Source of the DNA: Gammaproteobacteria bacterium
GTDB taxonomy: Bacteria; Pseudomonadota; Gammaproteobacteria; SURF-13
Direction: 5' to 3'
Length of the DNA stretch: 64,000 nucleotides
Assembly (NCBI GenBank): GCA_016195665.1
Contig: JACPZD010000009.1
Location: forward strand, 12,915-76,914
In this document: positions 41,182 to 64,000 of the stretch, one piece after another
How positions within the stretch are numbered: position 1 is the first letter of the stretch
How the letters are laid out: each line of letters starts with the position of its first letter
Notes under the pieces: model-generated
The model's database searches: none
What the model was told of the DNA's origin: nothing
Seen by the model: the letters and a program-made list of their open reading frames with translations, nothing else
Position numbers and translations under genes: made by a program

Positions 41182-41222
41182 CATCTTAGGCTCTCCACAA
41201 CGCCGTTTATAACAAACGATTC

Positions 41223-41284
41223 ACCACGGAGGACGCAGAGAAAAATCAAACAGGGTGAACGTATACCTCTGCGTCCTCTGCGGT
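41223..41284. repeat. REP inverted pair, TACCGCAGAGGACGCAGAG family
   Basis: Arms 41223-41240 and 41267-41284. Confidence 0.7.
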
Positions 41285-41321
41285 AAATGTAGTTTTATTG
41301 AAAGCTATTTATAACGAATCG

Positions 41322-44437: not shown

Positions 44438-44494
44438 CCTTTGCGCCCTCAGCGGTAAAAGATATAAACCTTTCTACCGCAGAGGACGCGGAGG
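44438..44494. repeat. REP inverted pair, same family as 41223
   Basis: Arms 44438-44459 and 44474-44494. Confidence 0.6.
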
Positions 44495-44514
44495 AAAATC
44501 GAAAACGCATCGTG

Positions 44515-47045: not shown

Positions 47046-47070
47046 ACTAAGAACTTATCCATAAATAAAT

Positions 47071-47139
47071 TTACCGCAGAGGACGCAGAGGAATGCCCTC
47101 AAGTAGGGTTTGTTTCTCCTCCGCGCCCTCCATGGTGAA
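47071..47139. repeat. REP inverted pair, same family as 41223
   Basis: Arms 47071-47091 and 47118-47139. Confidence 0.65.
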
Positions 47140-47186
47140 GCCTTTCCATCGCAAGGGACACAGGGGCACTATGTTATGGATATGCT

Positions 47187-59354: not shown

Positions 59355-60761
59355 ATGAGCATCCGCACCCGTTTCGCCCCCAGTCCCACCGGCTACCTGC
59401 ATGTCGGCGGCGCGCGCACCGCGCTGTATTCCTGGCTGTACGCGCGCAAACACGGCGGCACGTTTATCCTGCGCATCGAAGACACCGACCTCGAACGCTC
59501 CACCGCGGAGTCGGTGAATGCGATTCTGGAAGGCATGACCTGGCTCGGACTGGAATACGACGAAGGCCCGTTTTACCAAACGGAACGTTTTGAACGCTAC
59601 CGTGCCGTGATTCAACAATTGCTCGACGAAGGAAAGGCCTACCACTGCTATTGCAGCAAAGAAGAGCTGGATGCGATGCGCGCCGAACAACTGTCCCGCA
59701 AGGAAAAGCCGCGTTACGACCGGCGCTGGCGTGACTCCAAGGCCACACCGCCGCAGGGCGTTCCACCGGTGGTGCGCTTCAAGAATCCTTTGTCCGGCGA
59801 CGTGGTGGTCAACGATCTTATCAAGGGCGCCGTTGTGTTCCAAAATGACGAGCTCGACGATCTCATCATCGCGCGCGCCGACGGCACGCCGACCTACAAT
59901 TTCACCGTGGCGGTGGACGACTGGGACATGGGCGTCACCCATATCATCCGCGGTGACGATCATCTCAATAATACGCCGCGCCAGATCAATATCCTCAAGG
60001 CGCTCGGCGCCAAACCGCCCGCCTACGCCCACGTGCCGATGATCCTGGGTTCCGACGGACAGCGGCTGTCCAAGCGTCACGGCGCCGTGAGTGTGATGCA
60101 ATACCGCGAGGACGGCTTTTTGCCCGAGGCGCTGCTCAATTATCTGGTGCGGCTCGGCTGGGCGCATGGCGATCAGGAGATCTTCTCAATTGACGAGATG
60201 ATCGAGCTGTTCGATATCAAGGACGTCCATCGCGCCGCGAGCGCCTTTAATACGGAAAAACTGCTGTGGCTGAATCAGCACTACATCAAGATCTCCGACC
60301 CCGCGCATATCGCCCATCACTTGAGCTGGCACATGGGCAGGCTGGGTGTGGACCCCGCGCAGGGACCGGACTTGGTGGAAGTGGTCAAGGCACTGCGCGA
60401 ACGCGCCAAGACCCTGGTCGAAATGGCGCAGGCGGCCACGTTTTTTTACCAGGACTTCGAGAGTTATGACGAAAAGGCGGCGGCCAAGCATCTTACCGGC
60501 GAAGTGGCGGAAGCCCTGTCGGAGCTACACGACAGCCTCGCACATGTGAGTGACTGGACACAGGAGGCCATCCACCAGACGATAACCGATGTCGCCGCTC
60601 GGCAAGGACTTAACATGGGCAAGCTTGCCCAACCCCTGCGCGTTGCGGTCACCGGTAAGGCCGCCTCGCCGCCTATTGATGTCACTGTACATCTGCTCGG
60701 ACGCGAAGTGACTCTGCAACGTCTAAGGGACGCGCTTGTCCACATCCGTGCGGCTGGTTGA
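59355..60761 (+). CDS. gltX: Glutamate--tRNA ligase
   Basis: [24 protein letters not shown]...KLSKR-type LSKRHG. Confidence 0.96.
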
Positions 60762-60820
60762 ACAGCAGATTTATTGACGCTAGGGGCAACTACATCGTAA
60801 AATGCAAAGTTATTGTCGGC

Positions 60821-60916
60821 TTGGGGCCATAGCTCAGATGAGGCGCCCTCATCCCCATCCCTTCTCCCCTAGGGGAGAAGGGGGCGAGCCGAGGCGCTAT
60901 GCGCGTTTTGTATGAT
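60821..60916. repeat. 17-nt duplicate of the tRNA-Ala 5' end, followed by a 79-nt palindrome-rich insert
   Basis: TTGGGGCCATAGCTCAG at 60821-60837 is identical to 60917-60933. The insert holds the perfect 24-nt palindrome CCCTTCTCCCCTAGGGGAGAAGGG (60858-60881) and ATGAGG-CGC-CCTCAT. Confidence 0.85.
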
Positions 60917-60918
60917 TT

Positions 60919-60994
<76 letters not shown>

Positions 60995-61003
60995 ACCTCA
61001 ACC

Positions 61004-61052
61004 TGTGACGTACACGGATGCTCTAATGTCGCGTGAGGCAGGATGCCGGGAG
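61004..61052 (+). repeat. 46-nt repeat family, copy A
   Basis: TGTGACGTACACGGATGCTCTAATGTCGCGTGAGGCAGGATGCCGGGAG. Confidence 0.85.
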
Positions 61053-61082
61053 CGATCATACCTATACAATTCAAATTTCATA

Positions 61083-61158
61083 GTCCCCATCGTCTAGAGG
61101 CCCAGGACACTGCCCTTTCACGGCGGCGACAGGGGTTCGAATCCCCTTGGGGACGCCA
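61083..61158 (+). tRNA. tRNA-Glu (anticodon TTC)
   Basis: GTCCCCATCGTCTAGAGGCCCAGGACACTGCCCTTTCACGGCGGCGACAGGGGTTCGAATCCCCTTGGGGACGCCA. Confidence 0.93.
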
Positions 61159-61162
61159 GATT

Positions 61163-61201
61163 AAAAAGGGGCCTTGGGTTTTATCCAAGGTCCCTTTTTT
61201 A
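61163..61201 (+). terminator. Rho-independent terminator after tRNA-Glu
   Basis: AAAAAGGGGCCTTGG-gttttat-CCAAGGTCCCTTTTTT. Confidence 0.8.
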
Positions 61202-61230
61202 ATCTGCTATTCATATGGCAATTCGAATCC

Positions 61231-61279
61231 CTCCCGGCATCCTGCCTCACGCGACATTAGTACATCCGTGTACGTCACA
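61231..61279 (-). repeat. 46-nt repeat family, copy B (inverted relative to A)
   Basis: The reverse complement differs from copy A at 2 positions. It supplies the stop codon of the NlpC/P60 gene. Confidence 0.85.
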
Positions 61280-61787
61280 ACAAGCGCCCGGCGCGCACCA
61301 AACGCTTGCTCCAGTAGCCGTTATCGAGTGTCTCCACGGAAACCTGTTTGCCAGAAACAGGGGCGTGGATAAACTCATTACCTCCCTGATAGATGCCCAC
61401 ATGCGAAACACCACGACCGTTGATCTCGAAAAAGAGCAGATCGCCGGGCAGCAAGTCATCAAGTGTCACTGGCTGAGCTTGCCGGAACAGCCCGGCTGTG
61501 GTGCGCGGGAGATTTTGAATTCCCACCTGCTGATAGGTGTACAGCACCAGTCCGCTGCAATCAAAACCGCGCGGGGTAGCGCCCCCCAGCCGGTAGGGTG
61601 CGCCAATCATTTGTTGGGCAACCAATACGATATCGGCGCGTTGCTGCGCTTCGGGCGAAGGATAACTCTGTGATAGGCGCGGAGGCGTACTGCAGCCTGC
61701 CAACATGAGTAACGTCACGCAAAATAGAGCGCCATAGTGGGAGCGAAGAGAGACCGCCCAACCCTTATTGTCACGAATTGTATCCAT
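61275..61787 (-). CDS. NlpC/P60 (C40) peptidoglycan endopeptidase lipoprotein
   Basis: LLMLAGCS lipobox and FDCSGLVLYTY...SHVGIY...IHAP catalytic Cys/His motifs. Trimmed to ATG 61787. Confidence 0.85.
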   Translation of the reverse strand: MDTIRDNKGWAVSLRSHYGALFCVTLLMLAGCSTPPRLSQSYPSPEAQQRADIVLVAQQMIGAPYRLGGATPRGFDCSGLVLYTYQQVGIQNLPRTTAGLFRQAQPVTLDDLLPGDLLFFEINGRGVSHVGIYQGGNEFIHAPVSGKQVSVETLDNGYWSKRLVRAGRLL

Positions 61788-61830
61788 GAACCAGGCGGTC
61801 TCTCCCTCATCCGGCCTTTCGGCCACCTTT

Positions 61831-61876
61831 GACGTACAGGGAGGGACTAATGTCGCGGGAGGCAGGACGCCGGGAG
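61831..61876 (+). repeat. 46-nt repeat family, copy C
   Basis: GACGTACAGGGAGGGACTAATGTCGCGGGAGGCAGGACGCCGGGAG. Confidence 0.85.
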
Positions 61877-62098
61877 CGACCTCCCGCAGGCGGGAGAAGG
61901 AGAGTCGGTGCAGCCTTCGGCCGCAGGTTTCTGGGTGGGTAACAGGCGGGATGCGTACCGATTGCATTCTTGAATACCCCTTCAGAGAAGCTGGTCTAAG
62001 CTAACCCAGGGTACCCTAAAAATCAAGCCGGACAAGGCTTCGAACCTGTTTAAGACCATCGTGTCAAACCTATAACAAGCACGTATACTGAGCAACCC

Positions 62099-64000
62099 AT
62101 GGTTACAAAATCCCCGGTTCATCGCTTGCCGCCTCTGCGCTGGTATAGCCTGCTGTTTATAAGTCTGCCTATCTTGCTGATAGCGTTCGGGGTATACGTC
62201 GTCTATCTCGATCATACCGTCCAGGTTCAGTTTGAAGGCAAACGCTGGGCCTTGCCCGCGCGCGTGTATGCGCGACCCCTGGAATTGTTTCAAGGCATGA
62301 AGCTCAACCCTGAGATCCTGGCCGCAGAGTTGAATGATTTGGGTTATGTGCAAGTGACTCAACCTGAAGGACCCGGGGCCTATTCGCGCTCATCCGGTGG
62401 CGTACAGGGAGGAACTAATGTCGCGGGAGGCAGGACGCCGGGAGCGCCCGCATTTCGTTTGGTGACACGCAGCTTTCGATTCTGGGACACCAGCGAAGCT
62501 TCACAACCGGTCACGATAGCCTTTGACGGCGACACGCTGAGCGCACTGCAAAATACCCGGACCGGCGCACGGCTCGACCTGGTCCGTCTCGATCCGCTGC
62601 TGGTCGGCGGCATCTACCCGGCGCATCACGAAGACCGTGTCCTGGTGCAGGTCAAGGAGGTGCCGCCGCTGCTCATCAAGGCGCTGATTGACGTAGAGGA
62701 TCGCCGTTTTTATAAACACCACGGCATCAATATCGTCTCTATATTACGCGCCATGTGGGCCAACTTGCGCGCCGGTTCCACGGTGCAGGGGGGCAGTACG
62801 TTGACTCAGCAGTTGGTGAAAAATTTCTACCTTACCTCCGACCGCACCCTCAGCCGCAAACTCAACGAAGTCATCATGGCGGTGCTGCTGGAGATGCACT
62901 ATTCCAAGGACGAAATCCTGGAGGCCTATCTCAATGAAATATTTTTGGGCCAGGACGGTCAGCGCGCCATTCATGGTTTCGGGCTGGCCAGCCAATTTTA
63001 TTTTGGCCGGCCCTTGAATGAACTGGATGTCTCCCAACTCGCCCTGCTGGTGGGGATGGTCCCCGCCCCCTCGATTTACGAGCCGCGGCAACACCCGCAG
63101 CGCGCGATCGCAATACGGAATCGCGTCCTGGACGCCATGCTCACGCAACAGGATATCACCGCCGCACAGGCGGCCAAGGCCAAACAGGCGCCGCTCGGCG
63201 TGACCGCTAAACCCCCTGCGGGGATCTCGCCCTACCCCGCCTTCATGGATCTGCTGCGGCGCCAAGTGCAGCATGACTATAAGGAGGAGGACCTTACTTC
63301 GGAAGGCCTGCAAATCTTTACCGCGTTTGACCCGCAGATACAGCGCGTGGCGGAATGGGCCTTGGCGAATCGTATCGCAGCCCTGGAAAAGGCCTACAAA
63401 ATTCCCGAGGGAAAGTTAGAAGGCGCAGTGATCGTGACCGACACCCAGAATGGCGAAGTGCTTGCGATGGTGGGCGGGCGCGATGCGCGCTACACCGGTT
63501 TCAATCGGGCTCTCAATGCGCAACGCCCGATAGGTTCATTGATGAAGCCGGTTATTTATCTCACCGCCCTCGCCCAGCCGCAAAAATATACGCTCGTCAC
63601 CCCCTTGGATGACGGCGCCTTTACCCTGAAAAACACCGGTGGCAAGCCGTGGTCACCGCAAAATTACGATCATCAGTCACACGGGGAGGTCCCTTTATAC
63701 CTGGCACTGGCGCATTCTTATAATATATCTTCGGCGCGCCTGGGGTTAAAAGTGGGCGTCCCCCGTGTATTGAAGACCCTTTACGCCCTCGGTGTCACGC
63801 GCGAATTTCCGGCCTATCCATCTACCTTGTTGGGCGCCATCGAGCTGAGTCCGTTAGAGGTTACCCAGTTTTACCAAACCCTGGCGAGCGGCGGGTTCCG
63901 CACACCGCTGCGCGTCATTCGCGACGTGCTCACCACGCGCGGAGAGCCGCTGCAACGCTACCCGCTCTCGGTAGAGCAGGCCGCAGATCCGGCCCCGGCA
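62099..64000 (+). CDS. mrcB: Penicillin-binding protein 1B (bifunctional GT51/transpeptidase), 5' part; continues past the right edge
   Basis: Open frame missing from the ORF track. Hand translation: TM anchor, UB2H-like region, EDRRFYKHHG and GGSTLTQQLVKN (GT51), SLMKP and SYN (transpeptidase). Confidence 0.9.
   Translation, partial: MVTKSPVHRLPPLRWYSLLFISLPILLIAFGVYVVYLDHTVQVQFEGKRWALPARVYARPLELFQGMKLNPEILAAELNDLGYVQVTQPEGPGAYSRSSGGVQGGTNVAGGRTPGAPAFRLVTRSFRFWDTSEASQPVTIAFDGDTLSALQNTRTGARLDLVRLDPLLVGGIYPAHHEDRVLVQVKEVPPLLIKALIDVEDRRFYKHHGINIVSILRAMWANLRAGSTVQGGSTLTQQLVKNFYLTSDRTLSRKLNEVIMAVLLEMHYSKDEILEAYLNEIFLGQDGQRAIHGFGLASQFYFGRPLNELDVSQLALLVGMVPAPSIYEPRQHPQRAIAIRNRVLDAMLTQQDITAAQAAKAKQAPLGVTAKPPAGISPYPAFMDLLRRQVQHDYKEEDLTSEGLQIFTAFDPQIQRVAEWALANRIAALEKAYKIPEGKLEGAVIVTDTQNGEVLAMVGGRDARYTGFNRALNAQRPIGSLMKPVIYLTALAQPQKYTLVTPLDDGAFTLKNTGGKPWSPQNYDHQSHGEVPLYLALAHSYNISSARLGLKVGVPRVLKTLYALGVTREFPAYPSTLLGAIELSPLEVTQFYQTLASGGFRTPLRVIRDVLTTRGEPLQRYPLSVEQAADPAPA
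62399..62444 (+). repeat. 46-nt repeat family, copy D, in frame inside mrcB
   Basis: GGCGTACAGGGAGGAACTAATGTCGCGGGAGGCAGGACGCCGGGAG has 2 mismatches to copy C. It is translated as GVQGGTNVAGGRTPG. Confidence 0.85.

Follow-up and report, generated by a model that had tools for sequence, protein, structure and literature searches.

The window analysed here, a 64,000-nucleotide (nt) stretch of contig JACPZD010000009.1 from a Gammaproteobacteria assembly (GCA_016195665.1), ends within mrcB, the gene for the cell-wall synthase PBP1B, and this gene carries in frame one copy (copy D) of a 51-nt repeat that occurs in many unrelated genes and genera. The reading favoured here, at a probability of roughly 85%, is that copy D is selfish DNA whose insertion into a surface turn of the UB2H domain has been tolerated, a passenger and not an adapted feature. 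According to this proposal, a tiny (51-nt) non-autonomous mobile element would have inserted into mrcB a single time; its point of entry divides a Gly codon after the second base, at the apex of the UB2H β-hairpin. The features concerned are as follows.

62099..64000, forward strand: mrcB (PBP1B), first 634 codons, comprising the transmembrane (TM) helix, UB2H, GT51 and most of the transpeptidase domain (TIGR02071, Pfam, PDB 3VMA, dN/dS)
62398..62448, forward strand: copy D, the 51-nt repeat in frame in mrcB (alignment of filled with empty alleles L103, L102, L264 and L265; profile match of 51.6 bits)
62378..62464, forward strand: β-hairpin of UB2H, with strands at residues 94-98 and 118-122 flanking the insert (AlphaFold2, DSSP)

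The mrcB reading frame begins with an ATG at 62099 and runs uninterrupted up to the window's last base, giving 634 codons with no stops or frameshifts. Its product scores 745.6 bits against TIGR02071, the PBP1B equivalog model (cut-off 717.75), despite lacking the C-terminus; approximately the last 150 residues lie beyond the window, the orthologues being 770 aa long. Pfam analysis recovered UB2H (PF14814, E 2.8e-18, in two stretches), Transgly (E 1e-60) and Transpeptidase (E 2e-15), the catalytic motifs EDRRF and SLMK (SxxK) are present in the translation, and E. coli PBP1B structures match the product (3VMA, E 2e-133). A first-pass annotation, made from the letters of the window, had stated that the frame stays open through the GT51 and transpeptidase motifs and that the insert lies in a UB2H-like region between the TM anchor and GT51; both statements hold, the second through the Pfam assignment and the β-sheet seen at this place in the AlphaFold2 model. 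Full-length dN/dS values for the window allele were 0.14 against L103, 0.11 against L102 and 0.21 against L123, the other filled allele; together with the intact frame, these values indicate that mrcB has been kept under purifying selection while carrying the insert. The gene had been correctly identified as mrcB, as the score above the TIGR02071 cut-off attests, but the epithet "essential" was too strong: in E. coli, cells depend on PBP1B only if they lack PBP1A.

Comparison with empty-site orthologues defines the inserted block of copy D as TGGCGTACAGGGAGGAACTAATGTCGCGGGAGGCAGGACGCCGGGAGCGCC, 51 nt in length, and thereby corrects the span first given to the repeat (46 nt, 62399-62444) to 62398-62448. 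The block splits the codon of Gly100 (GG^C, with entry before the third base) and adds exactly 17 residues to PBP1B, G101-P117 (GVQGGTNVAGGRTPGAP). HMMER alignment to 3VMA places these between E. coli ...GEFTVQAN and SIEMIRRPF, in agreement with the 16-17 extra residues that had been estimated by comparison with E. coli PBP1B. That copy D belongs to a repeat family is borne out by a 45-mer that recurs, with one mismatch, at 61834-61878 in copy C (0.00 matches expected in shuffled sequence), and by a profile built from relatives' copies, which finds exactly four copies, A to D, in the 64-kb window. No target-site duplication accompanies the insertion, CCGG/CGCA having become CCGG[51 nt]CGCA; mrcB is the sole filled/empty pair clean enough at the nucleotide level for this test. 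As DNA, copy D folds no better than its shuffled versions (z +0.26). Because it measures 3 x 17 nt and is free of stops in its mrcB frame, copy D is most simply read through as a 17-residue Gly/Pro-rich loop, and such read-through would predict a PBP1B peptide stretch including SSGGVQGGTNVAGGR.

Alleles with and without the insertion coexist among close relatives. A scan of one genome per species supplied the close mrcB orthologues L103 (metagenome-assembled genome, MAG, GFS_7033), L102 and L123 (MAG SMAG_U13110), and a protein search supplied the further close alleles L264 and L265. Four of these (L103, L102, L264 and L265; 88-96% nt identity) have the empty site CCGG/CGCA, which in L103 and L102 reads ...GCGCTCGTCCGG/CGCATTTCG..., whereas the window and one other MAG, L123, carry exactly 51 extra nt at the same point. 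Both filled copies share a rare variant, GGGAGGAAC, that is otherwise unseen, indicating that they are orthologous and represent the same insertion by descent. The loop of copy D is found in none of the 120 best PBP1B homologues from a collection of 5.8 billion proteins. An alignment of orthologues, which the first-pass annotation had proposed as a check, thus yielded four empty close relatives, and the family-wide Gly-rich loop that it had considered as a counter-explanation is missing from all 120 homologues.

Structural modelling, likewise proposed earlier, places the insert as a low-confidence loop at the tip of the UB2H β-hairpin. The AlphaFold2 model was built from 99 sequences and has a mean predicted local distance difference test (pLDDT) score of 83.8; the score falls below 50 at residues 102-107 of the insert, marking it as a floppy extension of the β-turn. 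At this position, the homologues have a tight two-residue G/D/N turn (120 of 120). UB2H consists of a helix followed by four long strands with short turns between them (Egan et al., PMC6220978), and in E. coli numbering the insertion falls between N150 and S151, in the β2-β3 turn (offset checked on E233). From the alternation of the strands, this turn would lie at the end of the sheet opposite Loop 1, distal and exposed. The inserted loop is presumably flexible and surface-exposed, with the enzyme still working.

The first-pass annotation had pointed to LpoB, the activator that contacts this domain in E. coli. Residues N188, R190 and Q191 of E. coli PBP1B are important for LpoB binding, and Loop 1 spans residues 157-168 (PMC6220978); in sequence, the N150/S151 site lies outside both the contact residues and the loop. 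A gene for a tetratricopeptide repeat (TPR) protein overlaps the mrcB stop codon in L264 (4476-5051) and L265 (2785-3351), a position whose equivalent here is beyond the end of the window. The best natural PDB match of this TPR protein is the Pseudomonas aeruginosa PBP1B activator LpoP (6W5Q, E 1e-13), which likewise docks on UB2H (PMC7267771). Since an LpoP-like gene directly adjoins mrcB in these relatives, the activator of this lineage is probably of the LpoP type, which would make LpoB the wrong partner.

A 30-mer core of the repeat was matched by genome contigs in 101 stretches and by metagenome contigs in 82. Its hosts are Gammaproteobacteria-type MAGs, including Thiohalophilus and Sulfuricaulis; a few MAGs (GFS_7033, SMAG_U13110 and others) hold dozens of copies, and single copies are present in Vibrio zhanjiangensis, Photobacterium, Gilvimarinus, Sedimenticola and Arenimonas. 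Aligned copies give the 51-nt consensus TGACGTACAGGGAAGTACTAATGTCGCGGGAGGCAGGAYGCCGGGAGCGAC, with a sharp 5' edge (position 1 is T in 101 of 116 copies) and a 3' end GCGAC. Terminal inverted repeats are absent, as neither of the two ends, TGACG... and ...GCGAC, is an inverted copy of its counterpart. Folding of the consensus gives two hairpins (-8.5 kcal/mol), with z -2.7 for one strand and -3.8 for its complement. Covarying pairs (6-17, 7-16, 1-21 and 3-19; T-A to C-G and similar) define an imperfect 5' hairpin, and the 3' hairpin is predicted by folding. Among 238 distinct full-length copies from MAGs and metagenomes, 215 measure 51 nt and 18 measure 69 nt, together 98%, the remainder being 50 nt (four) or 52 nt (one). 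The 69-nt variant, found at loci L009, L017, L030, L044, L066, L067, L074 and L096, has an 18-nt block, AGCGNNAGCGAAGGGTTC, added in loop 1, which is again a multiple of three.

Searches for a known identity returned little. Within 60500-62700, Rfam at E<=10 placed no family on the repeat, its matches falling in the tRNA-Ala/tRNA-Glu region or elsewhere off it; the core sequence, on either strand, occurs in no searchable paper; and a BLAST search of the consensus against plasmids and phages, together with a scan of viral contigs, produced no match and no sign of a plasmid or phage vector. A three-unit concatenate of the element peptide returned 10 weak, short matches from the protein database, whose index needs more shared words.

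The earlier description of the element as an intergenic-type repeat does not survive a census of its locations. A copy was counted as genic when it lay in a coding-like open reading frame (ORF), recognised by a length of 150 codons or more, a minimum of 25 codons to either side of the copy, and a GC content at third codon positions (GC3) exceeding that at second positions (GC2) by more than 0.1. By this rule, 164 of the 238 copies (69%) are genic and in frame, against 71.5% of random points in the same loci, so the repeat is not of an intergenic type. The 74 copies outside ORFs are mostly 51 nt long too. Four of the six frames of the element are open and two carry stops, with almost no genic copies in the latter. 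Frame +1 accounts for 73 copies (xDVQGGTNVAGGRxPGAT), frame -0 for 57 (VAPGxLPPATLVxPCTS), frame -2 for 21 and frame +2 for 13. When copies were removed in silico, 158 junctions were spanned by an ORF on both tests, and about two frame-breaking copies sat at junctions of this kind, compared with the one third expected at random phase. Under the proposed mechanism, selection would remove insertions falling in the two closed frames, and the fixed 3n length and four open frames would make this a family built to survive inside genes.

The interrupted genes are recognizable. Nine of ten host ORFs tested have Pfam domains, and the genes identified in this way encode a UvrD-type helicase, HsdM (two), HsdR, the carboxysome carbonic anhydrase CsoSCA, an ATP-sulfurylase/APS kinase and a subtilase, as well as a spermidine-synthase-like and a DsbH-like protein. 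ThiC offers another contrast of alleles, with the insert in two Sulfuricaulis MAGs and an empty site in three orthologues. The repeat was also observed in hsdM of L018, L023, L079 and L091 and in hsdR of L078 (3666-3716), and in the single-copy cultured genera (Sedimenticola, Gilvimarinus and V. zhanjiangensis) it resides in type I restriction-modification genes. Occupation of the same hsdM site in several genera suggests that this repeat copy travelled with a horizontally transferred restriction-modification cassette.

The other three copies of the window are the following.

61006..61056, forward strand: copy A, between tRNA-Ala(GGC) and tRNA-Glu(TTC) (profile match; shared with L123, absent from L103 and L102)
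61227..61277, reverse strand: copy B, at the end of the NlpC/P60 gene (profile match of 56.0 bits; shared with L123, absent from L103 and L102)
61830..61880, forward strand: copy C, inside the NlpC/P60 ORF, encoding VAPGVLPPATLVPPCTS on the minus strand (profile match of 56.4 bits; absent from L103, L102 and L123)

All four copies lie within 1.45 kb, for which we estimate a random-placement probability of roughly 5e-5. Copies A, B and D are common to the window and L123, copy C is confined to the window, and none of the four occurs in L103, L102 or L264; in L123, a further copy is nested in B. Copy A resembles B and copy C resembles D, C being one nucleotide from the inferred ancestral D, a pattern that suggests local copying.

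Mobility of the family is indicated by the sharp 5' boundary, nested copies and tandems, and by the window-only copy C and the L123-only nested copy. Nesting in opposite orientation recurs in other copies after model positions 26, 29-30 and 33 (L096 1295-1396, 3172-3272 and 5218-5337; L123 301-402; L090 7554-7655), and the element thus appears to contain its own preferred target. The nested pair of L090 is still in frame within the DsbH-like gene. In L071, L085 and L255 (698-850), two or three units follow one another head to tail as exact tandems, repeating every 51 nt with nothing between them (GCGAC/TGACG). Flanking sequence shows a weak preference, C-Y-K-N^C, with C at -4 in 69% and at +1 in 76%.

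From this anatomy, it may be proposed that the element is moved in trans by a single-strand, hairpin-recognising transposase of the HUH/Y1 type. The proposal, which we rate at a little short of even odds, draws on the lack of terminal inverted repeats and of a target duplication in mrcB, the two hairpins, the oriented insertion, the exact empty sites, the weak C-Y-K-N^C motif and the repeated self-nesting at fixed sites. No long element shares its ends and could serve as an autonomous parent, the partial profile matches being halves of copies split by nesting. A REP-associated tyrosine transposase (RAYT) was considered as the mover and set aside: in 1.8 Mb of loci (contig fragments), a tblastn search with the E. 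coli RayT protein as query found one full RAYT, flanked by a different, GTAG-type repetitive extragenic palindrome (REP). This is a canonical REPtron (L195, 3385-4009), with a RAYT 48% identical to E. coli RayT and perfect inverted GTAG REPs (GTAGGGCGCAATAACCGAAGGGCATTGCGCC); the same metagenome contig also carries the 51-nt element, so two distinct repeat systems coexist there. More speculative still, and somewhat doubtful at present, is the idea that the 51-nt unit represents a previously undescribed class of ultra-small mobile elements that evolved to colonise coding sequence, combining 3n lengths, four open frames and low-cost loop-forming peptides with a hairpin-recognising enzyme that inserts without duplication and perhaps excises precisely.

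Small repeats lying in frame in genes are known from the Rickettsia palindromic elements (RPEs) and from occasional intragenic REPs (PMC10969869, PMC3733652). Like the present element, RPEs occur in frame in many unrelated, apparently functional genes, to which they add a conserved, fold-compatible peptide (PMC10969869, PMC3733652). RPEs are, however, about 100-150 bp long, palindromic throughout and confined to Rickettsia, in contrast to the 51 nt (69-nt variant), two separate hairpins and Gammaproteobacteria-type hosts found here; the likeness meant is one of behaviour. REPs and REPINs share with the 51-nt unit the format of a short hairpin repeat that lacks both terminal inverted repeats and duplicated target sites (Di Nocera et al. 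2013, PMC3733652), and some REP copies lie in genes, UvrD and repair genes among them, or provide stop codons as copy B does (PMC3733652). For the CGTC-tagged REPs, in which Di Nocera et al. found no dedicated transposase (PMC3733652), there is a further resemblance, as GACG at positions 2-5 of the element reads CGTC on the other strand; their stems of 8-9 bp and loops of 4-5 nt nevertheless differ from the 4-bp core stem and 6-nt loop of hairpin 1. Unlike REPs in general, which are single palindromes of 20-40 bp and mainly extragenic, the unit has no GTAG tag, contains a second hairpin, has a fixed length of 51 nt and is not depleted from genes. Unlike REPIN-RAYT systems, its copies flank no RAYT in the 1.8 Mb of loci, where the sole RAYT has a different REP.

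Closer in presumed mechanism are the IS200/IS605-related PATEs (Y1 HUH), with which the element shares the lack of inverted repeats and of duplication and the precise empty sites, and may share oriented insertion by a short motif and hairpins at both ends (here the 5' hairpin is supported by covariation and the 3' hairpin is predicted only). PATEs are longer and have a defined tetra- or pentanucleotide target, whereas the motif of the element is weak, and no TnpA for it came to light. MITEs, the miniature transposable elements with inverted repeats (Correia/NEMIS, ERIC, RUP and QMITE), are likewise non-autonomous, multi-copy and sometimes fused in frame to ORFs, but they measure 70-300 bp and have terminal inverted repeats and target duplications, neither of which is seen in the 51-nt element. 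The repeat behaves like RPEs and intragenic REPs and fits neither family.

Whether the insert was tolerated or exapted had been left as an alternative in the first-pass annotation. Insertion and tolerance are upheld by the empty alleles, the intact frame and dN/dS; exaptation gained no support over simple tolerance. A loop that had acquired a function in PBP1B, for example by tuning the binding of an outer-membrane activator to UB2H, and was then kept by selection would accord with the presence of the copy in two lineages about 6% apart at the nucleotide level, with the purifying selection on mrcB, with the decay of the hairpin of copy D, which may leave this copy no longer mobile, and with the role of UB2H as a regulator-docking domain (PMC6220978, PMC7267771). 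Yet presence of the insert varies between relatives that are nearly identical, and alleles with 96% nucleotide identity lack it; the loop has low pLDDT and its peptide is the generic element peptide of dozens of unrelated proteins; both substitutions that separate the window and L123 within the insert change the amino acid (G/D and P/T); and the site lies, in sequence, outside the published LpoB-contact residues. We therefore regard exaptation as unlikely. Removal of the insert from the mRNA, or its bypass by the ribosome in the manner of T4 gene 60 or the mitochondrial 'byp' elements, is more improbable again. The element does form hairpins, and its size is near that of the gene 60 gap, which is 50 nt, but the confinement of genic copies to stop-free frames and 3n lengths is predicted by translation and would not be needed for bypass or excision, and Rfam places no ribozyme or intron family on the element (60500-62700).

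Two further explanations can be given hardly any weight. One is that an ancestral Gly-rich loop of PBP1B was copied outwards into intergenic DNA, a direction of transfer for which the window-specific copy C, 520 nt upstream and one base from the inferred ancestral D, offers a possible local precedent. The four empty close orthologues and the lack of the loop in all 120 best homologues exclude this scenario, and the 51-mer recurs across many genera at unrelated places and in unrelated genes that number in the hundreds; as an account of how the family arose, the reverse direction is refuted, and it remains only as possible local copying from D to C. The other is that metagenome mis-assembly spliced the repeat into mrcB, as might happen in a window that is probably from a metagenome-type assembly and has other copies of a multi-copy repeat within 1.4 kb. 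However, L123, a different species-level MAG that was assembled independently, carries the orthologous copy at precisely this base with two substitutions of its own, and the insert is exactly in frame between flanks collinear with the orthologues.

Several observations weigh against the tolerated, mobile insertion favoured here. Filled and empty mrcB alleles are not cleanly sorted on the mrcB tree, and the distances are star-like: nt identity is 96.3% between the window and L264, 96.0% between the window and L103, 93.9% between the window and L123, and 95.0% between L103 and L123. The idea of the window and L123 as a clean clade with one gain was consequently dropped, as the distances would, if anything, pair the window with L264 and L123 with L103. 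The history thus calls for a polymorphism already present in the ancestor, for precise loss on one or two occasions, or for recombination; precise excision, if real, would explain the interleaving of filled and empty alleles. Translation of copy D within PBP1B is deduced from the reading frame and not observed. No transposase was found, clustering of the 1156 ORFs near copies having returned only host-gene families and no recurrent neighbour. The target motif is weak, at 0.5-0.8 bits at -4 and +1. Covariation cannot test the 3' hairpin, since the 3' half is nearly invariant (pair 33-41 changed in two of 85 sequences), and the split into coding and non-coding copies depends on a crude rule of ORF length and GC3.

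Copies B and C have also altered the gene divergent from mrcB.

61278..61967, reverse strand: NlpC/P60 lipoprotein gene, divergent from mrcB (ORF list; Pfam NLPC_P60 on the L264 orthologue; five-orthologue alignment)

Its stop codon is the TGA formed by the first three bases of copy B (61277-61275), in place of the native TAG of L103 and L102. The N-terminal region has a window-specific in-frame insertion of 186 nt (62 codons; 61754-61937, +/- 3 nt), made up of copy C and about 135 nt that contain short GC hairpins; no second copy of this 135-nt portion occurs in the loci examined. This insertion supplies an internal ATG (MDTIRDNKGWAV...), which would restore a signal peptide of normal length. 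Between copies A and B, tRNA-Glu(TTC) is bracketed by inverted arms of 53 nt that are 94% complementary (61006-61277). Directly after this tRNA lies a window-specific, terminator-like hairpin of about 66 nt (AAAAAGGGGCCTTGGG...CCAAGGTCCCTTTTTT, 61159-61226), which is absent from L103, L102 and L123 and has no other copy in the loci examined. Direct and inverted copies of a separate family of short repeats (ACCGCAGAGGACGCAGAGGAA-like), unconnected with the mrcB insertion, lie at 41211-41294, 44464-44496 and 47061-47168.

For annotation, the case advises caution, because 17-residue inserts of this kind resemble lineage-specific loops or assembly errors. Biologically, it indicates that a core cell-wall synthase can survive the presence of selfish DNA in the domain on which its regulator docks, and nature has supplied, in the filled and empty mrcB alleles, a pair with which to gauge the weight of a UB2H loop in activation. 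The phenomenon of selfish DNA in protein-coding genes, described in Rickettsia, is thereby extended to free-living environmental Gammaproteobacteria, and the repeat offers a compact system for finding the enzyme behind such elements, a question still open for CGTC-type REPs (PMC3733652). The family is perhaps weightier than copy D itself, as it is genic at the rate expected by chance, with purging visible solely in the stop-containing frames. If the proposed element class is real, it would be the first RPE-like, gene-dwelling repeat outside Rickettsia without depletion from genes, and essential proteins would steadily gain new surface loops from it.

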